NCBI GenBank assembly: GCA_040902765.1 | Contig: JBBDWO010000030.1 | Location: forward strand, 1,598 to 65,597 | Reading direction: 5' to 3' | Origin: Acidimicrobiia bacterium | GTDB lineage: Bacteria > Actinomycetota > Acidimicrobiia > Spongiisociales > UBA11373 | DNA: 64,000 bases | Part shown: positions 4,665-63,850 of the stretch, piece after piece | How the letters are laid out: every line of letters begins with the position of its first letter | Position numbering within the stretch: position 1 is the first letter of the stretch | Program-made: the position numbers and the translations under genes | Notes under the pieces: generated by a model | What the model was told of the DNA's origin: nothing | The model's input: the letters and a program-made list of their open reading frames with translations, nothing else | The model's database searches: none

Positions 4665-4767
4665 CGCGATTCGCGATTCGCGATTCTCGGTTCGCAATTC
4701 GCGATACCGGAAGCTTGCCCGACGACGCGCTGTCGATCCCGCGAATCGCGAATCACGAATCACGAAT
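4665..4767. repeat. inverted heptamer arrays with (CGCGATT)x3, CTCGGTT, CGCAATT, CGCGATA at 4665-4706, a 33-nt spacer, then (CGCGAAT)x2 and (CACGAAT)x2 at 4740-4767. The element ends 20 nt before the tsaE ATG.
   Basis: Read from the sequence. Confidence 0.9.
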
Positions 4768-4786
4768 TGCGGAGCGAAGCGACCCC

Positions 4787-5242
4787 ATGAGCGTCTCCCT
4801 CTTGTGTCCCACCGAGGCCGACACCCGTGCGGCAGGTCGCCGCCTCGCCAGCCTGCTGCGGCCCGGTGATGTCGTACTGCTCGCCGGGGACCTGGGGGCG
4901 GGTAAGACGGTGTTCGCCGGTGGGATCGGGGAGGGCCTGGGGGTCGACGAGCCGGTCATCAGCCCCTCCTACATCCTGAGCCGGCGCTACGAGGGGTTCC
5001 TGCCGCTGGTGCACGCCGACATCTACCGCCTCGGGTCTTCTGCGGAGATCGACGATCTCGACCTCCTCGGCGACGCCGCCGACGGGGTCCTGGTGGTCGA
5101 GTGGGGCCATGCTGCCGAGCAGGTGTTTGGTGACGAGCACCTGATGATCCGTATCGAGGTGGTGGAGGACGGTGCTCGCCGGGTTGACCTCGAGCCGCAT
5201 GGTCAGTGGCGTTCTCGGCCGCTCGCGGAGATCGTCTCATGA
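4787..5242 (+). CDS. tsaE: tRNA threonylcarbamoyladenosine biosynthesis ATPase TsaE
   Basis: LLAGDLGAGKT P-loop and YjeE-like length (151 aa). ATG 4787 is preceded by GGAGCGAAG. The ORF-table entry starting at 4445 is an upstream extension through a repeat region. Confidence 0.8.
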   Translation: MSVSLLCPTEADTRAAGRRLASLLRPGDVVLLAGDLGAGKTVFAGGIGEGLGVDEPVISPSYILSRRYEGFLPLVHADIYRLGSSAEIDDLDLLGDAADGVLVVEWGHAAEQVFGDEHLMIRIEVVEDGARRVDLEPHGQWRSRPLAEIVS

Positions 5243-7462: not shown

Positions 7463-7488
7463 GCGAATTGCGAATCGCGAATCGCAAC
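7463..7488. repeat. GCGAATT, (GCGAATC)x2 plus GCAAC, between tsaD and the CIRCE/groES region
   Basis: Read from the sequence. Confidence 0.85.
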
Positions 7489-7551
7489 TTGATATCCCTC
7501 CACTCACATCACCTGCTCCCGTCTGGCACTCTCCCCGGGTGATTGCTAGTG

Positions 7552-7578
7552 TTGGCACTCGGTAGCGACGAGTGCTAG
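7552..7578 (+). promoter_or_regulatory. CIRCE inverted repeat (HrcA operator) upstream of groES
   Basis: TTGGCACTC-N9-GAGTGCTAG compared with the consensus TTAGCACTC-N9-GAGTGCTAA. An extra TGGCACTC half-site lies at 7524-7531. Confidence 0.6.
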
Positions 7579-9570: not shown

Positions 9571-9618
9571 CGTTTCGAAACGAACGGTTGAGGGGCGGCC
9601 CACGGGTCGCCCCTCAAC
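9571..9618 (+). terminator. candidate intrinsic terminator after groEL: 12-nt palindrome CGTTTCGAAACG plus an 11-bp GC stem (GTTGAGGGGCG / CGCCCCTCAAC), with no U-tract
   Basis: Perfect inverted repeats immediately 3' of groEL. Confidence 0.45.
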
Positions 9619-9626
9619 GCGTCGTT

Positions 9627-9718
9627 AGTTGCCAGTTGCCAGTTGCCAGTTGCCAGTTGCCGGTCGCCGGTCCCCAGTCTCTTGGGGCGGGGCTCTGGCT
9701 GGTGGCTGATGGCTACTC
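9627..9718. repeat. heptamer arrays: (AGTTGCC)x5 plus GGTCGCC, GGTCCCC (9627-9675), a CCCCA-loop-GGGG hairpin, then GGCTCTG, GCTGGTG, GCTGATG, GCTACTC (9691-9718), which overlaps the stop of the minus-strand GNAT gene
   Basis: Read directly from the sequence. Confidence 0.85.
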
Positions 9719-10318
9719 GCCGAGCCACCCCTCTTCGACATACCGTGGCTGCTCGCGGGGGTACTCGTCGTCGAGGAGGGCCCAGAGGGAGTGGTCCACC
9801 CATTCGCCGCGGACGAGGACTTCACGGCGCAGGACGCCTTCCTGGACGAAACCGAGTTTTTCGGCGATGCGCTCACTCGCCCGGTTGCCCACCGCGATGC
9901 GCAGGGTCACCCGGTGCAGTTCGAGTTCTTCGAAGGCGGCCTGCACCACCCGCGCTCCGGCTTCGGTGGCGATGCCCTGACTGCCGACCGAGGTCCGCAC
10001 CCAGTATCCGATCTCACCCGACTGCTCGCGACGGGAGGTGTGCCACACCGAGATGTTGCCCAGGTGGCGCTCGGGATCGTCGAGGGGGCGGATCGTCATG
10101 TCGAAGGCTCGCCCATCGACCCACGCCGCCGCCGAGTCACGGATGAAACGGAGGGCATCCGCGCGGCGATAGCGGTCGGCTGCCCATGGGAGCCACGGTT
10201 CCAGTTGGGACTTGGATTCGGTGACGGCCTCGAGTAGGGAGTCGAGATCGCGCCGACGAAAGGGCCGCAGCTCCAGTCGTGGCGTGTAGCGCGATTGTGC
10301 GGCCAGCCGTGAAGGCAT
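9713..10318 (-). CDS. GNAT family N-acetyltransferase (RimJ/RimL-like)
   Basis: The PRLELRPF... N-terminal region and Acetyltransf_3-like motifs (IGYWV, RVTLRIAVGNRASERIAEKLGF). Confidence 0.7.
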   Translation of the reverse strand: MPSRLAAQSRYTPRLELRPFRRRDLDSLLEAVTESKSQLEPWLPWAADRYRRADALRFIRDSAAAWVDGRAFDMTIRPLDDPERHLGNISVWHTSRREQSGEIGYWVRTSVGSQGIATEAGARVVQAAFEELELHRVTLRIAVGNRASERIAEKLGFVQEGVLRREVLVRGEWVDHSLWALLDDEYPREQPRYVEEGWLGE

Positions 10319-10331
10319 AGCGAGAAGTTAG

Positions 10332-10395
10332 TCAACGCTCAACGCTCAACGCTCAACGCCTTCACGCTCAACGCTCAACGCTCAACGCTCAACGC
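10332..10395. repeat. (TCAACGC)x4, an 8-nt variant CTTCACGC, then (TCAACGC)x4. The array begins 13 nt upstream of the GNAT start codon.
   Basis: Read directly from the sequence. Confidence 0.9.
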
Positions 10396-10428
10396 CAGAC
10401 TCGTCGAGTACTGCGTTCAGCGTGAAGT

Positions 10429-10535
10429 GTTGAGCGTCTTCTCCTGCGTTGAGCGTTAGGCGTTGAGCGTCTTCTCTGGCGTTGAGCGTTTTCTCCTGCG
10501 TTGAGTGTCTTCTCCTGCGTTGAGCGTTCTTGTCG
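10429..10535. repeat. 19-bp tandem repeat GTTGAGCGTCTTCTCCTGC, about 6 copies (one truncated to 14 nt), in inverted orientation to the upstream TCAACGC array and ending 14 nt before the Nudix start
   Basis: Units at 10429-10447, 10462-10480, 10481-10499, 10500-10518, with variant units between and after. Confidence 0.85.
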
Positions 10536-10548
10536 TATCGTCCTCCCC

Positions 10549-11091: not shown

Positions 11092-11180
11092 TAACGCTCA
11101 ACGCAAGAGAAGACGCTCAACGCCTAACGCTCAACGCCAGATCTGGCGAGTCCTGCGTTGAGCGTTGAGCGTTGAGCGTC
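11092..11180. repeat. TCAACGC-family hairpin element with left units TAACGC, TCAACGC, ...ACGCTCAACGC, CTAACGC, TCAACGC, the loop AGATCTGGCGAGTCCT, and right units (GCGTTGA)x3
   Basis: Read from the sequence. It lies between the convergent Nudix and arsC 3' ends and starts at the Nudix TAG stop. Confidence 0.85.
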
Positions 11181-11186
11181 GGCCCC

Positions 11187-11594: not shown

Positions 11595-11617
11595 AGGCGC
11601 GATTGTCCCACGCGCGA

Positions 11618-11680
11618 GAACGCTTAACGCTCAACGCTCAACGCTCAACGCAAGAGAGGGTGAGTCTGGCGTTGAGCGCT
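11618..11680. repeat. TCAACGC-family element with GAACGC, TTAACGC and (TCAACGC)x3, then AAGAGAGGGTGAGTCTGG, then GCGTTGAGCG. GGGTGAG...CTCACCC flanks the right arm.
   Basis: Read from the sequence. Confidence 0.85.
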
Positions 11681-11733
11681 CACCCCCTAAGCGTCTGCAA
11701 GGCAACGATGACCGTCTCACTAGGTTCTCCTTG

Positions 11734-18914: not shown

Positions 18915-18915
18915 G

Positions 18916-18946
18916 CGCGATACGCGAATCGCGAATCGCGAATTGC
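18916..18946. repeat. (CGCGAAT)x3.5 array starting 1 nt after the guaA TAG stop, followed by the GC palindrome GCCGCGGC
   Basis: Read from the sequence. Confidence 0.85.
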
Positions 18947-19021
18947 GGTGCCGCGGCGGCTTGTCTCAAGGCGCCGCGTGCCACGCCGATACCCTGACGA
19001 GTGGTAGTCCGAGGTAATCCC

Positions 19022-21045: not shown

Positions 21046-21141
21046 CGCGATTCGCGATTCGCGATTCGCAAGACGCACCGTGAGCCTTCCAGCGCGGCTC
21101 TGGCGTCCTGTCTGACGAATAGCGAATTGCGAATTGCGAAT
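21046..21141. repeat. inverted heptamer arrays with (CGCGATT)x3 at 21046-21066, a 44-nt spacer, and GACGAAT, AGCGAAT, (TGCGAAT)x2 at 21114-21141
   Basis: Read from the sequence. It lies between the cheA stop and the pcrA start. Confidence 0.85.
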
Positions 21142-21198
21142 AGCGCTCAAATCACAGCCCGGTGATTCGAGCCATACCCCCGCCCTAAACTCTTTCTC

Positions 21199-24032: not shown

Positions 24033-24047
24033 GGCTCCGCCTCAGCC
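24027..24047 (+). terminator. GC hairpin GGCTGAGG-CTCCG-CCTCAGCC overlapping the mgtC stop
   Basis: A perfect 8-bp stem. Confidence 0.45.
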
Positions 24048-24108
24048 GTTACCCGTTTCCCGTTTCCCGGCAGGCGACAGGTAACCGGCAACCGGTAACG
24101 GGTAACCT
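24048..24108. repeat. inverted heptamer arrays with GTTACCC and (GTTTCCC)x2, a 12-nt spacer, then GTAACCG, GCAACCG, GTAACGG, GTAACCT. The element ends 10 nt before the ATG of the B12-domain gene.
   Basis: Read from the sequence. Confidence 0.85.
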
Positions 24109-24118
24109 GCTGGCCGCC

Positions 24119-24514
24119 ATGCCCCGCAGGATCCTCATCGCCAAACCCGGCCTCGACGGCCATGATCGTGGCGCCAAGGTGATCGCACGAGCGCTTCGCG
24201 ACGCCGGCAATGAGGTCATCTACTCGGGTCTCCACCAGACCCCCGAGCAGATCGTCGAGACCGCCATCCAGGAGGATGTCGCCGGGGTGGGGCTCTCGGT
24301 GCTCTCAGGGGCGCACATGACCCTGTTCCCGAGGGTCGTGGAGGTACTCGCCGAGCGCGATGCCTCCGACATCATCGTGTTTGGCGGCGGCATCATCCCG
24401 CCTGCCGACATCACTGCCTTGAAGGAGCGGGGCCTCGCCGAGGTGTTCACTCCGGGCACTCCGTTGGCGACGATCGTCGACTGGGTCGAAGCGAACATCC
24501 CGGCGGAGCGCTGA
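24119..24514 (+). CDS. cobalamin (B12)-binding domain protein (methylmalonyl-CoA mutase C-terminal / IcmB-like small subunit)
   Basis: The DxHxxG motif (LDGHDRG) and the Rossmann-like B12-binding domain GGGIIP (131 aa). No mutase catalytic subunit is visible in the window. Confidence 0.6.
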
Positions 24515-25663: not shown

Positions 25664-26541
25664 TGGCGATCTTCGTCGACGCCAGCACGCGACTCGTCGT
25701 CCAGGGGCTCACCGGCAGCCAGGGCCGATTCCATGGCTTCCGCAACCGGGACTCGGGGACGCGCCTGGTCGCCGGGGTCACTCCTGGCAAGGGCGGGATG
25801 GATCTCGACGGCGTCCCGATCTTCGACACGGTGTCCCAGGCGGTCGAAGCGACCGGTGCCAACACGTCGATGGTGTTCGTGCCTCCCGCCTTCGCCGCCG
25901 ACGGCATCCTCGAGGCGGCCGACGCCGACGGAATCAACCTGATCGTCGCCATCACCGAGGGCATCCCCGCCCACGACGAGGCCCGGGTGTACAACTACAT
26001 TCGCCAGACCAGCCGGACACCGCTCATCGGACCCAACTGCCCGGGACTCATCTCGCCGGGGAAGGCCAATGTGGGGATCACCCCCCACGAGATCACGCTG
26101 CCGGGCTCGGTCGGCGTGGTGTCGCGCTCGGGGACCCTCACCTACCAGGCGGTCCACGAACTCACGGTGCGCGGCATCGGACAGAGCACCTGTGTTGGCA
26201 TCGGTGGCGATCCGGTTCCGGGCACGTCGTTCGTCGACGTGCTGGAGCGATTCGAGGAGGACTCCGAGACCGAGGTGATCGTGATGATCGGCGAGATCGG
26301 CGGCAGCGCCGAGGAGGAAGCAGCGCTGTTCATCCGTGACCACGTCAGCAAGCCCGTGGTCGGCTACATCGCCGGGGTCACCGCACCCGCGGGCAAGAAG
26401 ATGGGCCACGCCGGAGCGATCATCTCGGGTTCCTCCGGCACCGCCGCCGCCAAGCAAGAGGCGCTGCGCGCCGCCGGAGTCACCGTCGTCGACGACCCCA
26501 GCGCCATAGGCGAAGCAGTAGGAATAGCGATTGGCAATTAG
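25663..26541 (+). CDS. sucD: succinate--CoA ligase alpha subunit
   Basis: The CoA-binding region and the catalytic-His region (GHAGAIISG). Its ATG overlaps the sucC TGA. The last six codons (GIAIGN) and the TAG stop are encoded by heptamer units. Confidence 0.9.
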
Positions 26542-26615
26542 CAATTAGCAATTGGCAAGAGTCGGAGTGCCGGGTTCTTGGACTCTTGCTGGTAGCTGGT
26601 AGCTGGTGGCTGGCG
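26523..26615. repeat. AATAGCG, ATTGGCA, (ATTAGCA)x2, ATTGGCA overlapping the sucD 3' end; then a 9-bp hairpin GCAAGAGTC-(16 nt)-GACTCTTGC; then (GCTGGTA)x2, GCTGGTG, GCTGGCG
   Basis: Read from the sequence. Confidence 0.85.
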
Positions 26616-28207: not shown

Positions 28208-28291
28208 CGAGTAGGAAGTACCAAGTACCAGGTACCAAGTACCTCTCTGGCTAATTGCCAATTGCGACTTCCCAATAGCGACTTGCGATAA
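28189..28291. repeat. 14 consecutive heptamer units: (AGTAGCG)x3, AGTAGGA, (AGTACCA)x2, GGTACCA, AGTACCT, then GCTAATT, GCCAATT, GCGACTT, CCCAATA, GCGACTT, GCGATAA. The element overlaps the folD 3' end and ends about 30 nt before icd.
   Basis: Read from the sequence. Confidence 0.85.
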
Positions 28292-29561: not shown

Positions 29562-29636
29562 GCTGCCGGCTGCCAGCCGTCAGCCATCTGCAGCACACGG
29601 CGGGTCGAGCGAATTGCGAATTGCGAATTGCGGTCT
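29562..29636. repeat. GC palindromes (CGGGGCCCCG, CCCGGG); then (GGCTGCC)x2, AGCCGTC, AGCCATC; then (GCGAATT)x3 plus GCGGTCT, ending 6 nt before the mdh RBS
   Basis: Read from the sequence. Confidence 0.8.
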
Positions 29637-37244: not shown

Positions 37245-37300
37245 ATTCGCGCTTTCCGCGCGATTCCTGGTTGACTGCGCGCGCTCCGCGCGCAATACTC
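37245..37300 (+). promoter_or_regulatory. candidate whiB promoter/operator with two GC palindromes (AATTCGCGC-TTTCC-GCGCGATT and TGCGCGCG-CTC-CGCGCGCA) flanking a TTGACT -35-like hexamer (37272-37277), followed by an AT-rich stretch
   Basis: Read from the sequence. No clean -10 hexamer was found at 17-bp spacing. Confidence 0.3.
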
Positions 37301-44708: not shown

Positions 44709-45397
44709 CTCGCGTCCTCATCATCGAGGACGAGCCGTCCTTCGTCGACGCCCTGACCGTAGCGCTCGACCGTGAAGGGTTCGAGGTGTCGGCCGCCTCC
44801 GACGGGAAGGTCGGGCTCCAGGCGTTTCGTCGTGACCCGGTCGACATCGTGCTCCTCGACCTGATGCTTCCCGGCATGTCCGGACTCGACGTGTTGCGGG
44901 GGATCCGTAGCACTTCGGCCGTTCCGGTGATCGTCGTCAGCGCCAAGGATGCTGAGGCCGATGTCGTCACTGCCCTCGAGATCGGGGCCGACGATTACGT
45001 GACCAAGCCCTACTCGGTGCGGGAACTGATCGCCCGGATCCGAGCGGCATCGCGACGGGCGACGCCACAGGCCGACGACTCGGTCTGCACCGTCGGGACC
45101 GCCACACTCGACCTGGGAGCGATGCGTCTCACCGTCGGGGACCGAGGCGACGACCTCCCCAAGAAGGAATTTGAGGTCCTGGCGATGCTGATGCGCCAGG
45201 TGGGACGGGTGGTGTCCAGGGAGGACCTCCTCGACGAGATCTGGGGATACGCCTGGCTGTCCGAGACCCGCACCCTCGACCAGCACATCCGCCGATTGCG
45301 TCGCCGCCTGGAAGTGGATCCGGGAGCCCCCCGCATCGAGACGGTGCGCGGCGTTGGCTACCGGCTCACGGCTCCGCCGGTAACCGGTAACGGGTAA
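44705..45397 (+). CDS. regX3: OmpR-family response regulator RegX3/PhoP-like
   Basis: REC (LIIEDE...LLDLMLPGMSG) plus a winged-helix trans_reg_C domain. ATG 44705 overlaps the senX3 stop. The C-terminal PVTGNG and the TAA stop are encoded by (CGGTAAC)x3. Confidence 0.8.
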   Translation: MTRVLIIEDEPSFVDALTVALDREGFEVSAASDGKVGLQAFRRDPVDIVLLDLMLPGMSGLDVLRGIRSTSAVPVIVVSAKDAEADVVTALEIGADDYVTKPYSVRELIARIRAASRRATPQADDSVCTVGTATLDLGAMRLTVGDRGDDLPKKEFEVLAMLMRQVGRVVSREDLLDEIWGYAWLSETRTLDQHIRRLRRRLEVDPGAPRIETVRGVGYRLTAPPVTGNG

Positions 45398-45398
45398 C
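45378..45398. repeat. (CGGTAAC)x2 plus GGGTAAC. The regX3 TAA (45395-45397) and the TAG of the convergent peroxiredoxin gene (complement of 45398-45400) abut within GGGTAACTAGG.
   Basis: Read from the sequence. Confidence 0.85.
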
Positions 45399-45972: not shown

Positions 45973-47577
45973 ATGAGCGAAACGATCGTGCTGTCGCCGC
46001 GCCCGGTGGCGACCGACATCCCGACCCTGATCCGTCTGCGCCGCCGGACCATGGCGGCCCTGACGGTCGTGCTCGTCGTCGTCATCCTGGTGATCTGCGT
46101 CGTCGCCGCCGTGTCGGCGACACCCCGGCTCTTCGTATGGGCGGCCGTCGGGATCGCCACTGCCATTCTGCTCGTGGTTCAGATCAGGGCGGGCTCCGAC
46201 GACCTTCGCCCGGTCGCCGTGCTCCATGCGGCAGCGGCTCCTTTCATCGTCGCGCTGGCACCCTCCGGGTCGATACCGGGGGTGCTCACCGCTCTCGTCA
46301 TGTCCGCGGTCCTGGTGTTCTCCATCTCGGCTCGGACCCGCCTCACCGGCATCACCGGTGCGGCGGTACTCGCCACCTACGGCTTCGTGGCGTACACCCG
46401 GACGAGCGGCCCTGGCGGCCTCGTCGGCGCTGCCGCTCTCGTCGGTGCCGCCGCCGTGGCGTGGAGGGTGCTCGACGGCCTGGTGGGGGAGCTCCGGGAG
46501 GGGGAGGACTCGTATCGGCACCTGTTCGACCGGGTTCCGGTCGGCTTGTACCGGACGGCACTGAGCGGTGAGATTCTCGACGCCAACCATGCCCTCGGCC
46601 AGATCCTGGGCTACTCCCGCCACGAGGTGATCGGCGTCAATGCGCGAGATTTGCTCGAGGATCCCGAGGACCTCGGGCGTCTCCGATCGAAGCTCGGCGG
46701 TGATGTCGACCAGTTGACCACCGACGTGCGGTTCCGCAGAGCCGACGGAGAGCTCATCTGGATCCGGGACCGTACTCGGTTGGTCCTCGATCAGGATGGC
46801 CAGATTCTCTGTTTCGAGGGAGAGTTGCAGGACGTCACCGAGGAGCGGCGGCACCTCGAGGAGCTCGAGTCGCTGGTGAAGTCCAAGTCGGAGTTGATCG
46901 GCGCGGTGAGCCACGAGATCCGCACGCCGCTGACCGCAGTCGTCGAGTTCCTCGATCTGGTGCTCGACGGGTCGAGGCGTCTCGATCCCGAGCACGGGGA
47001 ACTGCTGGCGATGGCCTCGGAGCAGGCCTATGACGTCGCCGGGATCGTCGAGGACCTGTTGACCGCCGCTCGCATCGACAACCGCGAACTCGTCGTCCAC
47101 ATGGAGTCCGTCGACGTGCGCGCCGCCATCGACGCAGCCGTCAGGTCGCTGGGTGTAGCCGGCTCCGATGACTTCAGCGTCGACGTCGGGTCAGGGCTCG
47201 CGGTGATGGCTGACGGGGGACGCGTCCGCCAGATCGTGCGGAACCTGGCGGTGAATGCGACCCGGTACGGCGTGCCACCGATCCGGGTCTCGGCCCAGGC
47301 GACACCGGACGGCGTCGAGATCGTCGTCGCCGACCGGGGGACGGCCATTCCGACCGCCGTGGCCGATCGGATCTTCGAAGCCTTCTACTCGGGTGCGCCT
47401 GGATCGAGCCAGCCCGGCTCGATCGGTCTCGGTCTGTCGGTGTCACGACGCCTTGCCCGGCTCCTGGGGGGCGCTCTGGATCACCGTCGAGTCGACGGAG
47501 AAACCCAGTTCGTCCTCAGCCTTCAGGCGGCCTCCCAGCACGACTACGCCACGAGCACTGCAGCAGCAGCCAAATAG
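45973..47577 (+). CDS. membrane-anchored PAS-domain sensor histidine kinase (orphan)
   Basis: About 6 N-terminal TM helices, PAS (YRHLFDRVPVGLYRT...), HisKA (VSHEIRTPLTAV) and HATPase (NLAVNATRYG...GSIGLGLSV). I chose ATG 45973. The TAG stop is immediately followed by (CTACCGG)n. Confidence 0.7.
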   Translation: MSETIVLSPRPVATDIPTLIRLRRRTMAALTVVLVVVILVICVVAAVSATPRLFVWAAVGIATAILLVVQIRAGSDDLRPVAVLHAAAAPFIVALAPSGSIPGVLTALVMSAVLVFSISARTRLTGITGAAVLATYGFVAYTRTSGPGGLVGAAALVGAAAVAWRVLDGLVGELREGEDSYRHLFDRVPVGLYRTALSGEILDANHALGQILGYSRHEVIGVNARDLLEDPEDLGRLRSKLGGDVDQLTTDVRFRRADGELIWIRDRTRLVLDQDGQILCFEGELQDVTEERRHLEELESLVKSKSELIGAVSHEIRTPLTAVVEFLDLVLDGSRRLDPEHGELLAMASEQAYDVAGIVEDLLTAARIDNRELVVHMESVDVRAAIDAAVRSLGVAGSDDFSVDVGSGLAVMADGGRVRQIVRNLAVNATRYGVPPIRVSAQATPDGVEIVVADRGTAIPTAVADRIFEAFYSGAPGSSQPGSIGLGLSVSRRLARLLGGALDHRRVDGETQFVLSLQAASQHDYATSTAAAAK

Positions 47578-47661
47578 CTACCGGCTACCGGCTACCGGCT
47601 AACAGCTACCAGCTACCGGCTACCGGCTACCAGTCAGACTCCGGTTGACGGTTGACGGTTG
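47578..47661. repeat. (CTACCGG)x3, CTAACAG, CTACCAG, (CTACCGG)x2, CTACCAG, then (CGGTTGA)x3, between convergent genes
   Basis: Read from the sequence. Confidence 0.85.
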
Positions 47662-47670
47662 ACGGCCAGC

Positions 47671-49966: not shown

Positions 49967-50419
49967 ATGGACCCAGAATCCCTACGCCGACCCGGCGACC
50001 TGGTGGTCGTCTCGGCCGACCCCATCGACCCGACGGCCCTCGTCGCCCGGGTCGTTGTACCCGCCGCGGGCGCCGTGGTGCTGTTCCTGGGCACGGTGCG
50101 GGACCACTCTGCGGATCGCCGGGGGGTCGTCGCCCTCGAATACGAGGCGTACACGGGCGTGGTGGAGGAGTCGATCTCATCGGTCGTCGGCGAAGCCCGT
50201 GACCGCTGGCCGCTGTTGGTGGTCGCCGTGGCTCACCGCACCGGGCGACTCGCGGTGGGGGAGGCCTCGGTCGGCGTCGCCGTGTCGGCTGCTCATCGTC
50301 CCGAAGCCTTCGACGCCGCCCGCTACCTCATCGACGAGTTGAAGCAGCGCGCCCCGATCTGGAAGAAGGAGATCTGGGAAGAAGGCGAAGAGTGGGTTTC
50401 AGGAGCTGGTAGCTCATAG
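49967..50419 (+). CDS. moaE: molybdopterin synthase catalytic subunit MoaE
   Basis: MoaE-family motifs (LFLGTVRD, ALEYEAY, VAVAHRTG). The last four codons (AGSS) and the TAG stop lie within heptamer units. Confidence 0.8.
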   Translation: MDPESLRRPGDLVVVSADPIDPTALVARVVVPAAGAVVLFLGTVRDHSADRRGVVALEYEAYTGVVEESISSVVGEARDRWPLLVVAVAHRTGRLAVGEASVGVAVSAAHRPEAFDAARYLIDELKQRAPIWKKEIWEEGEEWVSGAGSS

Positions 50420-50507
50420 CTCATGGCTCATGGCCAGAGAAGCATCGGTTGACGGGTAACGGGTAACGGGTAACCGGCAACGGGTGACGCCGCTGCCCCG
50501 GCAGCGG
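50404..50507. repeat. GCTGGT, (AGCTCAT)x2, GGCTCAT, GGCCAGA overlapping the moaE 3' end; then GGTTGAC, (GGGTAAC)x3, CGGCAAC, GGGTGAC; then a small GC hairpin CCGCTGCC/GGCAGCGG
   Basis: Read from the sequence. Confidence 0.85.
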
Positions 50508-57699: not shown

Positions 57700-58779
57700 A
57701 TGATCGATCCCTCCACGACCCTCACCCCACCCAGGCCAGCGCGGAGCGGCGCGCGCTGGCCGTTCTTCCTCGCCGTCACCTTTCTCGCCGTAGGTATGTC
57801 GGTTGCGTTGCTGTGGCCGGTCAAGGTCCCGTACTTCGCCATGTCTCCCGGCCCCATCGAGCCGGTGGCCGATCTGGTGACCATTAAGGATGCATCGACG
57901 TTCGAACTCGACGGGTCGGCATTCCTCCTCACCGTCGGACTCAAGGAGGTCAACGCCTTCGAGTGGTTGGAGGCGCGGTTCTTCGATCCGCAGGTCGACC
58001 TGATCCCGCGCGAGGCGGTGCGACCGTCGGGCGTGAGCCGAGAGGAGTTGACCCGCACCAATCTCCAGGCGATGGACGCCTCGATCGACACGGCCGTCTT
58101 CGTGGCGCTCGACCGAGCCGGATACGAGGTCGGTTTCACTGGCTCGGGGGTGGAGGTACTCCAGATCGTCGAGGGTTCGCCCGCGGAGGGGGTGCTCCTC
58201 CTCGGGGACCGAATCACCGAGATCGCCGGCACCGCGGTGGTCACCGAAACCGACGCCGCCGCCGTGATCCGATCGTTCGGTATCGGCGACACCATCACCC
58301 TGTCGGGCACTCGCGGCAGCGAACCGCTGAAAGTGGAAATAACCCTGGTGCCGCACACCGAGCTCCCCGACACCGCGATGGTGGGAGTCCTGCTGAGCAC
58401 CCTCGACCTGGAGATGGTCCTGCCATTCGACGTCCGGATCGACTCTCGGAACATCGGTGGACCGTCTGCCGGTCTCATTTATGCGATCACGCTGCTCGAC
58501 CTGCTCACCGAGGAGGACCTCCTCAAGGGCTACCGGGTGGCGGCCACCGGCAGCATTCACTTCGACGAGACCGTTGGTTCGATCGGCGGCGTCCGCCAGA
58601 AGATCTACGCAGCCCGTGCCCTCGGCGTCGACATCGTCTTCGTGCCCACCGCCAACTATGAGGCGGCGCTGACCGCTGAGGGGGATGGGGTCGTCATCGT
58701 CCCGGTCGACACCCTCCAGGATGCCCTCGACCACCTCGCTGCCCTGGAACCCAAGGCCCAGCGCCTGGCAGCCAATTAG
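57700..58779 (+). CDS. membrane-anchored PDZ-domain Lon-like (S16) serine peptidase (YlbL / Rv3194c-like)
   Basis: N-terminal TM helix, PDZ domain (VLQIVEGSPAEG) and Lon proteolytic-domain motif (IGGPSAGLIYAITLLD ... K). The TAG stop is the first unit of a heptamer array. Confidence 0.65.
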   Translation: MIDPSTTLTPPRPARSGARWPFFLAVTFLAVGMSVALLWPVKVPYFAMSPGPIEPVADLVTIKDASTFELDGSAFLLTVGLKEVNAFEWLEARFFDPQVDLIPREAVRPSGVSREELTRTNLQAMDASIDTAVFVALDRAGYEVGFTGSGVEVLQIVEGSPAEGVLLLGDRITEIAGTAVVTETDAAAVIRSFGIGDTITLSGTRGSEPLKVEITLVPHTELPDTAMVGVLLSTLDLEMVLPFDVRIDSRNIGGPSAGLIYAITLLDLLTEEDLLKGYRVAATGSIHFDETVGSIGGVRQKIYAARALGVDIVFVPTANYEAALTAEGDGVVIVPVDTLQDALDHLAALEPKAQRLAAN

Positions 58780-58880
58780 CTTTTGGCTATTAGTAGTTAG
58801 CGATTAGCCAGATTCGCCCTGACGCCCCGCGAGTGCTCCTGGCGTCTGGCCAATTGCCAATAGCTAATAGCCAATAGCTG
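58772..58880. repeat. inverted heptamer arrays with CCAATTA, GCTTTTG, GCTATTA, GTAGTTA, GCGATTA, GCCAGAT; a 35-nt spacer containing CGCGAG and GCGTCTGG; then GCCAATT, GCCAATA, GCTAATA, GCCAATA
   Basis: Read from the sequence. It belongs to the same sub-family as 32018-32115. Confidence 0.85.
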
Positions 58881-58902
58881 ATTCGTTGTATCGTCAGGGG
58901 CC

Positions 58903-60579
58903 ATGGCCGACGACGAACCAACGCTCAGTCGCGCGCCCGACGACCTCGGTCCGGCGACGCTGTCAACTCGTGGCGTTCCGACCGCGAGGCGCGGCTACGA
59001 GAAGAAGTCAGTGGATGCCCTGGTCGCCATCTCGGTGGAGCGGTGGGCCGAGCTGGAGCGTCGGTACCGGTTGCTCATGGACGAAGTGGACAAGGTGGGC
59101 GGTGCCGACCACCTGGTGCGTGACCTCACGGCGATCGGCGACGAAGTCGGCCGCATTCTCGAGGCGGCCAACGACGCCGCCACCGCTCTTCGCGAGCGTG
59201 CCCGCAACGATGCCGAGCGGGTTCGTACCCAGGCGCGGCAGAAGGCGGACAAGGCGACCAGCGAAGCCGACGACGCCGCGGAGCGGGCGCTCGCCGATGC
59301 CGAAGCGGCGGCTTTCGAGGTTCGACAGGCGGCCTGGGAGCAAGGGGTGGCCCTGGTCGACGGCGCCGCCACGCGGGCGACGCAGCTCGTCACCGAGGCA
59401 CGAGACGAGCTGCTGAAGTTCCGATCCGAGGGGGAGCGGGAGTCGCATCGCCGGGTCGCGGCGGCCCGGAAGGACACCGAAGACATGGTGAGGGCGGCGC
59501 GGGTGGAGGCGGAGCACCACATCGCCCGCGCTCGGATGCTCGCTGCCGAGATCCTCGAGCGAGCCGAGCTGGGTTTCGATGGGGACCTCGATGCCACCGA
59601 GCGCCGCCGGAAGGCGGTGCTCACCGACCTGGAGCTCCTCGAAGCCGAACGCTCCATCGCCGAGGTGACCGTGCTGCCCGCCGAGCCCGCCCCGGATCCA
59701 GGCTCGCTCCCGGAGCCGGTGGCCCCCGTCCACCTCGGCGACGAGTCGGGCCCCGACCCCCGCGCCGACTTCGGTGAGTCGCTGATGGCCGAGGTCGAGC
59801 AGATCCGTCGGGACGGGGAGACATCGTCCGCGCCGGGACCCGCCGACCGGGGGGCCGAGCCACGGACCCGCCGGCCCGAGCTCGGCGAGATCGGATCGTT
59901 GTTCGAAGCCCTGCGCTCGACGGCGGAGCACCAGCTGGGCTCCGGGGAGCAGTCGGGCGACGACCCGCTCGCCGTGCGGGATCGGAGACTGATGGGACTC
60001 CACAACGCGGCGTTGCGGGATGTCAAGCGCCGCATCGCCGAACTCCAGGATCGGGCGATCGAGGGGCTTGAGCAGGGCGAGTGGTCTCCGGCGGCGGAGG
60101 CCATCGGGTCAGACCTCACCGCGCTCCTGGAGCCGTTCCTGGCACGGGCTTCTTCGGCGGGCGCCGACGAGGCGCGCCAGACCACCGGTGTCGATCCGGT
60201 GATCCCCAAGGCGGGGCGGGCTCGATCGATGGTGGGCACGATGGCGGGGGAGCTCGGGAGCCAGCTGCGCGCCGCTCTCTCCCGAGGTGGCGCCGCCGCC
60301 GAGCGGATCACCGCGATCCGGTCGGTGCTGCGTACCTGGCGGGTGGACGACGCCGAGCGATGGATCGCTTCGATCCTCATCGCCGCCTTCAACGACGCGA
60401 TGATTGTCTCGCTCGAAGCCGGTGGCTTCGATCGTCTTCAGGGTCTCTCGTCGGGTGTGGGGTGCACCGATTGCCTCGGTGCCGATGGGGCGGTGTGGGA
60501 GCTGGCCGATCCACCGGCGGACAAGCGGGTGCCCCCTGCCGACGCCAACTGCCGCTGCGGCGTGGTGGTGGCCAAGTAG
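58903..60579 (+). CDS. DivIVA-domain protein with an extended coiled-coil and a Cys-containing C-terminal domain (possible Phage_Mu_F-like NCRC motif)
   Basis: The N-terminal ...RGYEKKSVDALVAISVERWAELERRY matches the DivIVA domain signature (GY-x2-x-VD-x-FL). About 250 aa are Ala/Glu/Arg-rich heptad-like sequence. The C-terminus GCTDCLGADGAVWELADPP...PPADANCRCGVVV resembles the terminal motif of SPP1 gp7 / Mu gpF domains. This C-terminal call is from recall only. Confidence 0.5.
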   Translation: MADDEPTLSRAPDDLGPATLSTRGVPTARRGYEKKSVDALVAISVERWAELERRYRLLMDEVDKVGGADHLVRDLTAIGDEVGRILEAANDAATALRERARNDAERVRTQARQKADKATSEADDAAERALADAEAAAFEVRQAAWEQGVALVDGAATRATQLVTEARDELLKFRSEGERESHRRVAAARKDTEDMVRAARVEAEHHIARARMLAAEILERAELGFDGDLDATERRRKAVLTDLELLEAERSIAEVTVLPAEPAPDPGSLPEPVAPVHLGDESGPDPRADFGESLMAEVEQIRRDGETSSAPGPADRGAEPRTRRPELGEIGSLFEALRSTAEHQLGSGEQSGDDPLAVRDRRLMGLHNAALRDVKRRIAELQDRAIEGLEQGEWSPAAEAIGSDLTALLEPFLARASSAGADEARQTTGVDPVIPKAGRARSMVGTMAGELGSQLRAALSRGGAAAERITAIRSVLRTWRVDDAERWIASILIAAFNDAMIVSLEAGGFDRLQGLSSGVGCTDCLGADGAVWELADPPADKRVPPADANCRCGVVVAK

Positions 60580-60683
60580 GTTCGCGATTCGCGAGTCGCA
60601 ATTCGCGATTCGCAGGACCGAGCCAACGCTGGCGTGGGTGGATCGAGCGCCTCTTGGCGAATAGCGAATCGCCAATCGCGAAT
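60580..60683. repeat. inverted heptamer arrays with GTTCGCG, ATTCGCG, AGTCGCA, ATTCGCG, ATTCGCA immediately after the TAG stop, a 39-nt spacer, then GGCGAAT, AGCGAAT, CGCCAAT, CGCGAAT
   Basis: Read from the sequence. Confidence 0.85.
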
Positions 60684-60737
60684 TGCGGCTTTACCCGATG
60701 CCAGCCTCATCCCAGGCTCCCCTAAAGTGCATCTCTC

Positions 60738-63638
60738 ATGATCGAACGCGACCCGATGCCTTCCCCGTTCGGGAGACCGTCACCCCGCCGGCGGTTCACC
60801 CTGACCATCCTCGGTATCGCCTTCGCGGTGCTGCTCTCCCTGCGGGGGATCGCCACGTTGTGGACCGACTACCTGTGGTTCGACTCGATGGGTTACGGGC
60901 CGGTGTGGACCACGCTGTTGTTCAACCGGGTGGTGCTCGTCATCGTGGCATCGGTCGTCGCGTTCACTCTGCTGTATCTGAACCTCGTCCTCGCCGACCG
61001 CCTCGGACCTCGCCGGCTGCTGATGGCGGGGAGCCCGGACGAGGAGATCATCGAACGCTTTCAGGAGTGGGTGTCGGCGAGGGTGCGACGGTTCCGGCTC
61101 ATGGTGTCGGGCATTCTCGGGATCCTCCTCGGCCTCGGCGCCGCTGGCTGGTGGGAGCACTGGCTCATGTACAGCAACCGGCAGTCCTTCGGCAGGACCG
61201 ACCCGCTGTTCGGCAACGACATCGGGTTCTACGTGTTTCAGGTCCCCTTTCTTCGGGACCTGTTCGGATGGGGCTTCCAGTTCGTCCTGGTGACGACCAT
61301 CGTGGTGGCGGTCCTCCACTATCTCAACGGCGGCATCCAGTTCCAGGCCCGAACACAGCAGGTGGCACCGGGGGTGAAGGTCCATCTCTCGGTTCTCCTG
61401 GCCATCGTGGCGATTCTCAAGGCGGTCGGGTATTGGCTGGGTCGCTTCGACCTGCTCTACAGCGACCGCGGCTCGGTGTTCGGCGCCACCTACACCGACG
61501 TCAATGCCCAACTGCCCGCGCTCAACCTGCTGATCGGCATCTCCCTGCTCGCCGCAGTGCTGCTGCTGGTCAACATGAGGATCCGGGGTTGGACGCTGCC
61601 CGCGGCCGCCGTCGGGCTGTGGTTGGTGACCTCTATCGCTCTCGGTGGCCTGTGGCCCGCCGCCATCCAGCGGTTCTCGGTAGAGCCCGACGAGATCAAC
61701 AAGGAGTTGCCGTTCGTAGGGCGCAACATCGAGTTCACCCGCGCCGCCTACGACCTAGAGGAGATCGCGTCGGTGAGGTATTCGGCGTCGGATCAACTCG
61801 ACGCCGATGACCTCGCGGAGAACGCGGGCACCGTGTCCAATGTCCGGCTCTGGGATCCGCAGGTGCTCCTGGTCACCTATCGCCAGCTCCAGGAGCTTCG
61901 CCCCTTCTATCAGTTCACCGATGTCGACGTGGATCGCTATCTGGTCGACGGGGAGCTGCGACAGGTGATGCTGGCGTCGCGGGAGTTGGACGACGAGCGG
62001 CTGCCGCAGACCGGATGGGTCAACCAGCATCTCGTGTTCACGCACGGCTACGGGGCGGTGGTGAGTCCGACCAACGAGGTGACCGACGAGGGCCAGCCGG
62101 ACTTCATGGTCAAGGACATCACCCCGGGACCTGACGTTCCCGAAGCCCTTCGGATCGACCAGCCGAGGATCTACTTCGGGGACTCGCAGCCGTCGGTTCC
62201 TTTCGTAATCGTCGGGACCAACGAGCGCGAAGTCGACTTCCCGGTGGAGATCGGCGAGGGTGCCGAGACCGTCGCCTTCAACACCTATGACGGGACCGGG
62301 GGCATCGAGGTCGGCGGCATTTTCCGTCGCGCCGCCTTCGCTCTGCGCTACGCCGACATCAACGTGTTGATCTCGGGCCAGCTGCGCAGCGATAGCAAGT
62401 TGCTGATGGAGCGCACGGTCCGGGGCATCGTCACCAAGGCGGCGCCGTTCCTCAGCCCGGACGCGGACCCATACCTGGTGGTGCTCGACGGGCGCCTCCT
62501 GTGGGTCCAGGACATGTACACCACGACCGACCGGTACCCGTACTCGACGCTCGCTGGCGACCCCGGTTCCTCAGCCGCCAGGGAAGCGGCAACAAGTCGA
62601 CTCAATGTCCGATCCGGACTGCCCTCCGACTTCAACTACATCCGCAACTCGGTCAAGGCGACCATCGACGCCTACGACGGCACGCTGACCTTTTACACGA
62701 TGGACGACGAGGATCCGATCCTCGGTGCGTGGCGCAGCCTGTTCCCCGACCTCTTCCAGCCCCTGTCGGAGATGCCCGATGGACTCACTGAGCACCTGCG
62801 GTATCCGGAGGACTTGTTCCGGGTTCAGTCCGACCTGTTAACCCGGTATCACATGACCGACTCCCGGGTTTTCATCAACAACGGTGACCCGTGGGAGATC
62901 GCCCGCAATCCGGCGACGACGCCACCCGAGGCCACCCGCGGCCAGTTCGAAGCCGGTAATCGGCCGATGGCCCCGTACTACCTGCTCATGCAGCTGCCTG
63001 GCGACGATGATCTCTCCTATCTGATCCTCCAGCCGTTCACCGCGGCTACGCGGCCCAACATGGTGTCGTTCCTGGTGGCCAAGTCGTCGTTGGCGGACTA
63101 TGGCGACATGATCAGCTTCGAGCTGCCCCGCGACTCGTTCGTCGACGGTCCGGGCCAGGTGGGGGCGCGCATCAATCAGAACCCGGAGATCTCGCGGGAG
63201 TTCACGCTGCTCGGCCAGCAGGGTTCGCAGGTGATCCAGGGCAACATGCTCGTGGTGCCGATCGAGGAATCGGTCGTTTACTTCCAGCCGGTGTATCTCG
63301 CCGCTCGCGGCACGGGCACCGGCAACGACATCACTGCCCTCCCGGAGTTCAAGTTCGCCATTGTCGTATTCGGCGACACGATCGTGATGCGCGAGTCCCT
63401 CGCCGAGGCACTGATGGCCGTGTTCGGTGGTTCTACCGTAGATCCGGACGATCCGGAGCTCCCGGAGGAGATCCTCGAGGCGGTCGCCGAGCTGATGTCC
63501 CGGGCCGAGCAGGCATTTGAGCGCGCCGATCTGGCGCTGCGCGATGCCGACCTGGCCGAGTTCCAGCGTCAGGTGGCCATCGCCCGCAGCCTGATCGCCC
63601 AGGCGAACCGGCTGATCGACGAGGCCGTCAGCGAGTAG
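60738..63638 (+). CDS. UPF0182-family large polytopic membrane protein (Rv3193c-like)
   Basis: Length of 966 aa, multiple N-terminal TM helices (TILGIAFAVLLSLRGIATLWTDYLWFDSMGY) and a large extracytoplasmic domain typical of UPF0182. It is adjacent to the Lon-PDZ gene, as in mycobacteria. Confidence 0.65.
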   Translation: MIERDPMPSPFGRPSPRRRFTLTILGIAFAVLLSLRGIATLWTDYLWFDSMGYGPVWTTLLFNRVVLVIVASVVAFTLLYLNLVLADRLGPRRLLMAGSPDEEIIERFQEWVSARVRRFRLMVSGILGILLGLGAAGWWEHWLMYSNRQSFGRTDPLFGNDIGFYVFQVPFLRDLFGWGFQFVLVTTIVVAVLHYLNGGIQFQARTQQVAPGVKVHLSVLLAIVAILKAVGYWLGRFDLLYSDRGSVFGATYTDVNAQLPALNLLIGISLLAAVLLLVNMRIRGWTLPAAAVGLWLVTSIALGGLWPAAIQRFSVEPDEINKELPFVGRNIEFTRAAYDLEEIASVRYSASDQLDADDLAENAGTVSNVRLWDPQVLLVTYRQLQELRPFYQFTDVDVDRYLVDGELRQVMLASRELDDERLPQTGWVNQHLVFTHGYGAVVSPTNEVTDEGQPDFMVKDITPGPDVPEALRIDQPRIYFGDSQPSVPFVIVGTNEREVDFPVEIGEGAETVAFNTYDGTGGIEVGGIFRRAAFALRYADINVLISGQLRSDSKLLMERTVRGIVTKAAPFLSPDADPYLVVLDGRLLWVQDMYTTTDRYPYSTLAGDPGSSAAREAATSRLNVRSGLPSDFNYIRNSVKATIDAYDGTLTFYTMDDEDPILGAWRSLFPDLFQPLSEMPDGLTEHLRYPEDLFRVQSDLLTRYHMTDSRVFINNGDPWEIARNPATTPPEATRGQFEAGNRPMAPYYLLMQLPGDDDLSYLILQPFTAATRPNMVSFLVAKSSLADYGDMISFELPRDSFVDGPGQVGARINQNPEISREFTLLGQQGSQVIQGNMLVVPIEESVVYFQPVYLAARGTGTGNDITALPEFKFAIVVFGDTIVMRESLAEALMAVFGGSTVDPDDPELPEEILEAVAELMSRAEQAFERADLALRDADLAEFQRQVAIARSLIAQANRLIDEAVSE

Positions 63639-63815
63639 ATCGCGACCGGTTCATTGCCAGATCGGATTCGCTTGAACCCGGGTCGTTGCCAGGTTGGGTC
63701 TCGAGTTCCGATCATCGAAGGCCAGATGCCGACAGACGCGGGGACCGCTTCGGATGGCGGTCGATTCGCCCACCGCACCGCCCGGGTGATGCGCGACGCG
63801 AGGGCCGAGGCTTCT

Positions 63816-63850
63816 CCGGTAGCCGGTAGCCGGTAGCCGGTGGCCGGTAG
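63816..63850. repeat. (CCGGTAG)x3, CCGGTGG, CCGGTAG, with a further CCCGGTAGCC at 63865-63874
   Basis: Read from the sequence. It lies upstream of a partial ORF. Confidence 0.85.

Follow-up and report, generated by a model that had tools for sequence, protein, structure and literature searches.

The DNA described here is a 64-kb stretch of the genome of an Acidimicrobiia bacterium (the window, 64,000 nucleotides of contig JBBDWO010000030.1), and its subject is a family of tandem arrays of 7-nt units that lie in the spacers between the genes. The gene map of the window, drawn from codon-usage log-odds, comprises 60 genes and is 92% coding. Pfam confirms ordinary genes, and all 60 have housekeeping or core functions; they include tsaBDE, groES/EL, guaB/A, pcrA, sucCD, folD, icd, mdh, sdhCAB, whiB, and pstSCAB-phoU, and the window also encodes an ABC transporter for branched-chain amino acids and UPF0182. 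A preliminary description, made from the letters of the sequence, had taken the host for a high-GC actinobacterium, which agrees with its assignment as an Acidimicrobiia metagenome-assembled genome (MAG), and had drawn attention to the heptamers. We find that the period-7 family is real and that its arrays differ between relatives by whole units and in unit type.

Heptamer arrays in the intergenic spacers

Tandem repeats were detected with Tandem Repeats Finder and with our own scan, in which the sequence was compared with itself at offset p and scored +1 per match and -3 per mismatch (threshold >=14), and both procedures recover the family. Tandem Repeats Finder returned 93 rows for the window, of which 42 have period 7, and a further 8, with period 14, 21, or 28, describe these arrays again. 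The offset scan yielded 22 stringent arrays at p=7 and a single one at p=6, with p=4, 5, and 8-12 empty, while 100 block-shuffles of the window contained no stringent period-7 array. The 22 start coordinates that had been listed for the family, from 4665 to 63816, each coincide with a period-7 array or a degenerate heptad run, those at 29562 and 33474 being the weakest; at least 24 loci had been claimed, and we count 23.

The arrays are almost entirely intergenic. In the window, 584 array bases fall into intergenic and 49 into coding DNA, corresponding to ~14% of the former and <0.1% of the latter, and the coding bases are all located at the last codons or stop codons of genes whose C-termini enter an array. 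Across nine related contigs, arrays make up 2,531 of 18,509 bases between genes and 72 of 177,621 in coding DNA, their density differing 337-fold, and their share of the intergenic bases ranges from 2 to 35%. These figures bear out the earlier statement that coding regions are nearly free of arrays. The accompanying statement that essentially every intergenic gap holds one was too broad, as arrays occupy 22 of the 35 gaps that measure 40 nt or more, and 14 gaps are empty. Usually, an array extends from the upstream stop codon, or from a few nucleotides past it, to some tens of nucleotides short of the next start codon. Coding DNA is presumably array-free because a change of 7 nt in either direction shifts the reading frame, such that selection would remove frame-shifting arrays.

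At least 15 unit classes are present in the window genome. The common pattern RRTNGCS, under which the units had been summarized, accommodates 13-14 of 26 window arrays, compared with 4-6% of random heptamers, in a test scored on the same data from which the pattern was derived; the other arrays, including the largest family (AACGCTC, six arrays), lie outside it. As a clade-wide motif RRTNGCS was rejected, since in each relative only 0-2 arrays match, though the relatives are equally dense with other units.

Tandem repeats are hard to assemble, and all the data are MAGs or metagenome contigs, so the arrays could in principle be a product of short-read metagenome assembly or binning. We regard this as hardly credible. 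Logan assembly SRR27977660 (L001) is 100% identical to window positions 57738-64000 with three arrays included, and because this independent assembly reproduces them exactly, the arrays are not an assembly artefact. Moreover, the same phenomenon recurs in JGI, ENA, and NCBI contigs from different pipelines, and the arrays respect gene boundaries and the 7-nt period.

Distribution and turnover within one clade

Syntenic contigs of relatives were obtained via homologues of PcrA and scanned with the same array detector as the window; the data comprise 64 kb of the window genome and ~10-kb flanks of the relatives, all of them metagenomic. The search of genome contigs gave L002 as the sole relative above 55% identity, with the window species not among the GTDB representatives recovered, and in that of metagenome contigs L087 and L088 were the only close relatives among the matches listed, the other loci serving as negative controls. 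Set beside the 22 stringent arrays in 64 kb of the window, the two relatives at 81% PcrA identity carry 12 arrays in 19 kb (L082) and 8 in 12.7 kb (L085), and those at 78% carry 7 in 20 kb (L086) and 7 in 9.7 kb (L087). At 76% there are 6 arrays in 16.7 kb (L168) and 2 (L167), followed by 2 at 75% (L169), 3 in 14.7 kb at 74% (L171), 1 in 22 kb at 73% (L170), and 6 in 22 kb at 72% (L172). No array was detected in 13.8 kb of L002 (70%) or in 22 kb of L088 (63%), and five were detected in the 2.4 Mb that ~156 loci of other Actinomycetota comprise. Period 7 shows no excess over periods 6 or 9 in 1.5 Mb of genome loci of other Actinomycetota, and no period besides 7 is enriched in the array-bearing relatives (L082-L087, L167-L172). 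The array trait is thus a property of one Acidimicrobiia clade, expressed with patchy intensity.

Within this clade, arrays gain, lose, and homogenise whole units over very short evolutionary time. The contigs L082, L083, and L084, which come from different samples, have one PcrA protein sequence in common and match each other at 99.8-99.9% identity over 5-6 kb without other gaps, but the spacer between the cheA-like gene and pcrA measures 222, 285, and 292 nt in them, and every indel is a multiple of 7. In the same array, one G-to-A change is common to 3-4 adjacent units, a concerted change within the array. A second group, L173-L176, shows 4-6 mismatches in 9 kb, and its only indels are one GCGGATG unit (L173 versus L174) and an 18-nt block of a hexamer repeat. 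This hexamer repeat, (GCCGGA)n, is located at ~1440-1470 of these contigs, adjoins heptamer arrays, and varies by 18 nt among contigs that are otherwise nearly identical, so that instability in unit steps is not strictly confined to period 7 in this clade.

Over longer distances, the unit sequence itself is rapidly replaced at fixed genomic positions, in sequence free of other constraints. Relatives at 72-81% PcrA identity have arrays in gaps orthologous to those of the window, with mostly different units. In the gap between the cheA-like gene and pcrA, an operator-like palindrome AATCACA-N4-TGNGATT and a -10 box are kept in all lineages, while the stretch from the stop codon to this box is lineage-specific. 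It measures 0 nt in L170 and consists of a (CGCGATT)/(GCGAATW) foldback in the window, a (CAGTCAY)/(GGACTGG) foldback in L087, the succession (AAGARCC)(TCTTGAC)(CCTCGCY) in L082-84, (GCCTCCR)11 (CTGCACG)~20 in L085, and (CATGAGT)/(CCACTCA TTRATCA) in L169. In the array-free relative L002, orthologous spacers are repeat-free and 47-60 nt long, compared with 86-114 nt in the window, and the -10-like boxes GCGATAATCC and GGGTAACCTGCT are conserved at the right-hand spacer edge in both.

The palindrome upstream of pcrA lies at 21150-21167 in the window and recurs in six relatives (L082 9953, L085 2262, L086 9955, L087 7680, L170 9953, and L171 2496); it is followed by a -10-like TAnACT box, and it has no match in 2.4 Mb of loci from other Actinomycetota. 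It is probably the operator for a repressor of pcrA, and it differs from what we take to be the actinobacterial LexA box.

One gap points to a possible source of new units. Between mgtC and the gene for a B12-binding-domain protein, (GGTAACS)n abuts the -10 box GGTAACCT in the window, L085, L167, and L169, and only a single copy (GGTAACCT, GCTAACCT, or GCTAATCT) is found in L002, L082, L086, L168, and L170; it is plausible that the array was seeded from the local -10 box sequence. As a general account of the units, tandem -10 boxes were rejected, since RRTANNN units are always followed by R and not T, and the A-type and B-type units (see below) contain no TA. The idea holds only as this example of seeding, at 24080-24107. 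In all lineages, the (G/C)TAACCT box itself precedes the ATG of the B12-binding-domain gene by only ~10-12 nt (window 24100-24121), a spacing that suggests a leaderless transcript.

Arrays have also entered junctions within operons. In two relatives, arrays of ~110-130 nt are located within sucC-sucD (L167 7141-7272, L168 14429-14541), and in a third between the B12-domain gene and sucC (L169 13335-13467). In the window, the genes at both junctions overlap or nearly abut. Expression of the downstream gene in these relatives must therefore tolerate an array.

The strict period of 7 would suit a protein that reads DNA or RNA in steps of 7 nt or 7 bp, such as an omega-type ribbon-helix-helix repressor on DNA or, on single-stranded RNA, cold-shock-domain proteins. 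In Inc18 plasmids, the omega repressor, a ribbon-helix-helix protein, binds contiguous 7-bp operator units in direct and inverted orientation, and both arrangements occur among the units here. Its operators, in contrast, consist of one consensus heptad (WATCACW) at a few plasmid promoters, compared with dozens of unit types across a chromosome in the present case. On the RNA side, CspB binds with one protein per heptamer (PMC4679880). Nonetheless, the preliminary proposal of an array for a single sequence-specific protein is disfavored: such a protein is unlikely because at least 15 unit classes occur in 64 kb and the repertoires of relatives are largely different. Copy number is unconstrained between near-identical strains, sister lineages have the same genes and promoters without arrays, and no candidate gene for a binding protein is linked to the arrays in the window. 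We therefore judge a binding-site role highly improbable.

Foldback pairs and element families

At ~12-14 loci, as detected by inverted-repeat search and folding, an array is followed by a spacer of 10-55 nt and a reverse-complement array, so that the inverted partner arms noted in the preliminary description exist there; about a third of the loci are unpaired arrays. Pairing was assessed by folding z-scores without G.U pairs together with the inverted-repeat search, since strict pairing of unit consensuses proved too insensitive for partner arms that are often degenerate. The arms in the window are 22-44 nt long and 75-95% complementary, with multiple alternative registers 7 nt apart, and the boundary of an array on the loop side often reads GC[CA]AGA ... 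TCT[GT]GC. Such foldbacks, composed of array, GC[CA]AGA hinge, spacer, and reverse-complement array, can form imperfect hairpins of 20-45 bp in several 7-nt registers. Folded without G.U pairs, 56% of the array gaps of the window have z < -3 (median -3.6), compared with 19% of the gaps without arrays across the clade (median -0.7). In the relatives, only 25% of the array gaps reach z < -3. The unpaired arrays or strings of unrelated units in the window start at 7463, 18916, 28187, 29609, 47577, 50410, and 63816.

Three recurrent types can be distinguished. The A type, CGCGATT / GCGAATN, forms foldbacks at 4665, 21046, and 60581, and its unit occurs unpaired at 7463, 18916, and 29609. The first foldback (4665-4771) is situated in the gap between a uracil-DNA glycosylase family gene and tsaE, begins 3 nt past the stop codon, and consists of 5.9 copies of CGCGATT, a spacer of ~35-55 nt, and 4.6 copies of CGCGAAT; its arms measure 23-32 nt, are 75-88% complementary in five registers, and fold with z -3.6. 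The second (21046-21145) fills the stretch from the stop codon of the cheA-like gene to the conserved pcrA operator and -10 box with 3.4 copies of CGCGATT, a GCAAGA hinge, a 46-nt spacer, and 4.3 copies of CGAATWG. The third (60581-60687), in the gap between a DivIVA/Scy-like gene and UPF0182, comprises 4.7 copies of TTCGCGA, the hinge GCAGGA, a 50-nt spacer, and 4.4 copies of GCGAATC, with arms of 26 nt that are 88% complementary. Unpaired on the plus strand are 3.3 copies of GCGAATC at 7463-7485 (z 0.1), upstream of the CIRCE (controlling inverted repeat of chaperone expression) boxes and groES, and 3.6 copies of CGCGAAT at 18915-18950, which begin immediately past the guaA stop codon. Between the array at 7463 and groES, at ~7520-7575, two CIRCE-like inverted repeats, CTGGCACTC-N9-...TGCTAG and TTGGCACTC-N9-GAGTGCTAG, match the sequence expected of the HrcA operator. 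The third unpaired array belongs to a plus-strand locus at 29562-29632, where a degenerate (GCTGCCR) run and 3.4 copies of GCGAATT end ~28 nt upstream of the real mdh start, a TTG at ~29661. The start of the longest mdh open reading frame (TTG at 29541; 29628 in the first gene map) is probably wrong, and comparison with L002 places it at the TTG near 29661, after the ribosome-binding site GGAAGGAG; the (GCGAATT)3 array is therefore wholly intergenic.

The B type, AACGCTC / GAGCGTT, is present in six copies in two neighborhoods, at 10.3-11.7 kb and 37.0-37.7 kb. Aligned over arms and hinge, the six foldbacks share 36 invariant columns and have variable loops. A B-type complex (10332-10527, z -9.3) lies in the divergent gap between a GNAT and a NUDIX gene and is composed of nine copies of TCAACGC, the hinge GCCAGA, a loop, and 5.5 copies of a 19-nt module. 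This 19-nt repeat, at 10429-10527, joins a hinge-like decamer CTTCTCCTGC to GTTGAGCGT and represents the tandemly amplified right half of a B-type foldback. The copy at 11092-11186 occupies the entire convergent gap between the stop codons of the NUDIX and low-molecular-weight phosphatase genes (arms 26 nt, 92% complementary; z -7.4), and that at 11617-11690 has 4.7 copies of AACGCTC, a GCAAGA hinge, and a short partner arm. In the second neighborhood, (CGAGTAG)-like units, a B-type foldback at 37035-37095 (arms 22 nt, 95% complementary), and 2.3 copies of CCAGCTA succeed one another at 37022-37115, 3' of sdhB. A further B-type foldback of the sdhB-whiB gap, found by Tandem Repeats Finder and the inverted-repeat search, is located upstream of whiB at 37144-37212, and Tandem Repeats Finder places 2.7 copies of GTAGCCG followed by another (37655-37716) at 37621-37716, 3' of whiB. 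The sole sigma-70-like promoter match in the 20-40 kb region (TTGACT-17-AATACT), at 37271-37299 upstream of whiB, is flanked by two B-type foldbacks.

The E type, GCTATTR / GCCAATA, occurs at 32018 and 58780, and both copies hold GCCAGA...CGCGAG...GTCTGGCCAATTGC. The first (32018-32116) directly follows a perfect 20-bp hairpin 3' of the HU gene and reads 4.4 copies of AGCTATT, hinge GCCAGA, loop, TCTGGCC, and 5.3 copies of GCCAATA; its arms of 31 nt are 87% complementary (z -10.8). The homologous second copy (58780-58878) has arms of 44 nt that are 77% complementary, and the last codons of a Lon-like/PDZ gene form its first unit. In the 72% relative L172, an E-type element, (GCTATTG)n-GGCCAGA-loop-TCTGGCCAA-(GCCAATR)n, is found at 9685-9915 in the cheA-pcrA gap, not at the E-type sites of the window; its spacer of ~170 nt itself contains (GCCTATT) units.

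The remaining loci are more individual. In a convergent gap, after the canonical hairpin 3' of groEL, five copies of AGTTGCC plus degenerate units are paired through G.U with 2.7 copies of TGGCTGA (9627-9714). At 24046-24107 (z -4.9), 3.4 copies of CCGTTTC face four copies of GGTAACC, and this right arm enters the conserved -10 box GGTAACCT of the B12-binding-domain gene. The plus-strand locus at 26525-26613 consists of 4.9 copies of TAGCAAT, the hinge GCAAGA, a loop, and 3.7 copies of GCTGGTA, its first units encoding the C-terminus and stop codon of sucD. Also on the plus strand, three successive arrays at 28187-28284, with four copies of CGAGTAG, four of AAGTACC, and 1.9 of CCAATAGCGACTTC, end at a conserved GCGATAAT box upstream of icd, and the folD stop codon lies within the first. 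A triple array in a divergent gap (33474-33565) combines three copies of GGCAGAR, 4.1 of GCTRTCT, and (CTCTGCC)-like units. The plus-strand array at 45377-45398 (3.1 copies of CCGGTAA) provides a response regulator with its final residues and stop codon and adjoins the stop codon of a convergent AhpC-family gene. In another convergent gap (47577-47665; z -0.4), 7.9 copies of GCTACCG starting from a histidine-kinase stop codon are followed by 3.4 copies of CGGTTGA and are weakly self-complementary. Finally, on the plus strand, 3.3 copies of GCTCATG overlap the moaE stop codon at 50410-50489 and are followed by the hinge GCCAGA and 5.4 copies of ACGGGTA upstream of an ABC ATPase gene, and 5.1 unpaired copies of CCGGTAG at 63816-63851, upstream of the next gene, have an exact copy in the independent assembly L001.

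Several genes thus end inside an array. The final codons, together with the stop codon, come from an array in sucD (26527-26541, ...IAIGN*), folD (28187-28207), the response regulator (45377-45397, ...PPVTGNG*), and the Lon-like/PDZ protein (58768-58779). Array turnover therefore remodels protein C-termini.

A second, unrelated hairpin class, CTCCCCC-N3-6-GGGGGAG, lies in intergenic gaps at 38721-38737 and 38846-38864 of the window. It recurs in relatives (L002 7211-7230, in that array-free genome; L086 19227-19245; L169 8863-8877), with four matches elsewhere in 2.4 Mb, and could be a REP-like or terminator element of the clade.

The position and folding of the foldbacks raise the question of whether they are selected RNA elements, namely 3'-end stem-loops that act as terminators without a U-tract, as barriers to 3'-exonucleases, or as RNase III sites, comparable to the repetitive extragenic palindromes (REP) and bacterial interspersed mosaic elements (BIME) of Escherichia coli. 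Arrays begin at stop codons or a few nucleotides from them, tandem and convergent gaps are enriched over divergent ones, the array gaps of the window fold far better than shuffles, and the arms of the locus at 26525-26613 are paired solely through G.U on the plus (sense) strand (-46.9 versus -23.9 kcal/mol on the minus strand). Against this stands, first, the sequence context. No T-run follows any array hairpin, and a terminator scan of 20-40 kb found 5 sites, with 5.9 expected, none of which is an array hairpin. Two arrays already have a perfect hairpin of the conventional kind ahead of them (9597-9630 and 31974-32017), two divergent gaps, 10319-10548 and 33405-33610, contain arrays as well, and the relatives carry arrays at the within-operon junctions sucC-sucD and B12-sucC, which normally overlap. 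On these grounds the terminator role suggested earlier is disfavored. Second, the sense strand folds more stably in 8 gaps and the antisense strand does so in 5, and this comparison of G.U with C.A pairs revealed no consistent sense-strand bias; variant units, in addition, are not mirrored between the arms. Because of both observations, we see no strong selection at the RNA level and arms that drift independently. Third, folding at z < -3 is reached by only 25% of the array gaps in the relatives, and L002, whose gene order is unchanged, has short spacers free of hairpins. Rfam 15 gave no match at the gathering threshold on either strand of the whole window. Taken together, a selected RNA role appears improbable to us. 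As RNA, foldbacks would nevertheless add stable stem-loops to 3' untranslated or intercistronic regions, with possible incidental effects on transcript stability or processing.

A different reading takes the foldbacks as non-autonomous mobile hairpins, similar to REPs and REPINs or to miniature inverted-repeat transposable elements (MITEs), which would be mobilised in trans by a transposase encoded elsewhere in the genome; heptads and copy-number change would then be secondary. Their size of ~70-110 nt and intergenic location resemble REPINs, the six B-type copies align, the two E-type copies have the sequence given above in common, the E-type architecture reappears in L172 at a non-orthologous gap, unit classes are common to genomes beyond chance, and the hinge motif is enriched. 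The similarity of foldbacks is, however, weak evidence of copying, because the arms are simple heptad arrays. Among the 60 window proteins, in 64 kb of genome searched, there is no transposase, REP-associated tyrosine transposase (RAYT), integrase, or reverse transcriptase. By eye, neither target-site duplications nor sharp common outer ends are visible in the B-type foldbacks beyond a loose GCGAG(A/T)AG on the left, which precedes 4 of 6, and the clustering of these copies in two neighborhoods suggests local duplication rather than transposition. Unpaired arrays and strings of unrelated units account for about a third of the arrays in the window and for most of those in relatives, and near-identical contigs differ by unit number, not by insertion of a whole element. 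GTAG occurs within some units (GGTAGCC, AGTAGCG), not at a constant distance from hairpins. We thus consider mobile hairpins an unlikely primary explanation. The REP/BIME-like element of the preliminary description stays alive as a partial explanation that accounts for dispersal: the copies are family-like, with no RAYT seen among the window proteins and no fixed GTAG.

Origin of the arrays and relation to known heptamer repeats

In our judgment, the arrays are probably, though with considerable room for doubt, lineage-specific, hypermutable, slippage-driven heptanucleotide microsatellites akin to the short tandemly repeated repetitive (STRR) sequences of cyanobacteria and to long simple sequence repeats (LSSRs). 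Among the roles considered in the preliminary description, the selfish micro-element fits best, understood as a selfish or mutational micro-element. Tandem 7-nt units would accumulate in unconstrained spacer, typically from the stop codon to the promoter or operator of the next gene, and whole-unit changes may arise by slipped-strand mispairing at replication or repair. Foldback pairs could originate by inverted duplication or intrastrand template switching and spread to further gaps as the small A, B, and E element families, the arms of which would then drift independently. A REP- or MITE-like dispersal component may well coexist with slippage. The evidence requires no function.

A number of observations weigh against microsatellites driven by slippage alone. 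The 7-nt step has no explanation from slippage, and units reappear from gap to gap within a genome beyond what pure local slippage would give: pairs of units from different gaps with at most one mismatch amount to 13% in the window genome versus 2.9% for random heptamers. Between genomes, 11 class pairs are shared versus 2.4 expected (P ~5e-4). This sharing is partly orthologous inheritance, as for ACGGGCG in the sucC-sucD gap of L167 and L168, and partly concerns non-orthologous sites, as for the E-type foldback of L172. At 126 array flanks on the nine contigs, GCCAG is the top 5-mer, with 12 occurrences versus 2.9 expected (p=4e-5; borderline after correction for 1024 5-mers), and CAAGA is next. 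Gene orientation matters as well, since arrays account for 3.7% of bases in divergent gaps versus 19.6% in tandem and 12.7% in convergent ones, and an array is present in 39 of 78 non-divergent compared with 3 of 17 divergent gaps (Fisher p=0.017), a pattern that a role at gene 3'-ends predicts equally. Lastly, the copy-number comparisons rest on short-read metagenome contigs, whose differences could partly be assembly error; such change is seen in two related lineages, and the one second assembly of the window is identical.

A bolder reading, which we think rather unlikely, is that the arrays are not passive slippage debris and instead arise from an activity that is peculiar to the clade and proceeds in intrinsic steps of 7 nt. 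Such an activity could be a variant of a replication or repair enzyme, or a system that recognises GC[CA]AGA...TCT[GT]GC and builds and disperses heptad-armed foldbacks. If true, a dedicated 7-nt activity would constitute a new kind of bacterial foldback mobile element.

Whichever process drives them, the slippage-type microsatellites favored here have counterparts. STRR heptanucleotide sequences were reportedly described in heterocystous cyanobacteria by Mazel et al. in 1990 (cited in PMC4692102), and the likening to them in the preliminary description was apt. The arrays share with them head-to-tail units of 7 nt, an essentially intergenic location, several families per genome, and restriction to lineages; the features of STRR and heptamer repeats in general, namely period-7 head-to-tail arrays, confinement to non-coding DNA, whole-unit change, and several lineage-restricted families, are all found here. 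They differ in phylum and GC content, in their unrelated units, in that most window arrays form foldback pairs around a recurrent hinge, and in covering 14-35% of intergenic DNA. The listed window unit classes include none of the STRR1-3 units, which we take to be CCCCAGT, TTGGTCA, and CAACAGT, and the host is an actinobacterium, so that strict membership of the STRR sequences does not apply.

In the summaries available for it, the survey of Mrazek, Guo, and Shah (2007) describes heptanucleotide long simple sequence repeats as over-represented in some prokaryotic genomes, with three Actinobacteria among the top ten, and proposes an origin by polymerase slippage (PMC4679880, PMC4692102). As summarised there, these repeats resemble the present arrays in the over-representation of period 7 and in their absence from genes, 7 not being a multiple of 3. 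The foldback pairing and within-genome unit families described here set our arrays apart from the long repeats as those summaries present them. The 2007 survey is said to predate Acidimicrobiia genomes.

Also comparable are the GGGAATC repeats of Xanthomonas and the GGGGAYT repeats of Nostoc (Rehm et al, 2015; PMC4692102). They too are intergenic heptamers that vary in length and sequence at the same loci between close relatives and include some inverted pairs that could fold into stem-loops or cruciforms (PMC4692102). Each of these genomes, in contrast, has one G-rich, quadruplex-forming unit type, whereas the window has many units that form no quadruplex and is dominated by inverted pairing. 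In marine Beggiatoaceae and some cyanobacteria, the TAACTGA direct repeats (MacGregor, 2015; PMC4679880) are likewise intergenic heptamers, and relatives with the same gene neighborhood have shorter, repeat-free spacers (PMC4679880). They consist of a single unit, are located mostly just upstream of start codons, and are almost never inverted, unlike the many units, stop-codon starts, and many inverted pairs found here. With the REP, BIME, and REPIN elements of proteobacteria, the arrays share dispersed intergenic hairpins of ~100 nt downstream of genes and genome-specific families. REPs, in turn, have a fixed consensus with a 5' GTAG and a RAYT transposase, without 7-nt substructure or variation in unit number. 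A full-text literature search returned no paper that joins Acidimicrobiia with heptamer repeats.

The arrays are a genuine and strikingly dense case of a known, still unexplained heptamer-repeat phenomenon, from a new lineage and notable for how prevalent its foldback pairing is. That some bacteria are over-rich in heptamers was noted in 1990 and again in 2007, and why 7, why some lineages, and whether the repeats are neutral are standing questions. For these, the clade offers a clean natural experiment, with conserved core-gene neighborhoods, whole-unit change between 99.9% identical strains, and syntenic array-free sisters. Because array-rich and array-free lineages share gene order, a causal gene could be sought by phylogenetic profiling, and metatranscriptomes together with population data could measure the cost or benefit of the arrays and thus distinguish neutrality from function. 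In practice, the arrays will fragment short-read assemblies of these MAGs, and they could serve as strain-typing markers. For the organisms themselves, they can extend or truncate protein C-termini, as at sucD and the response regulator.

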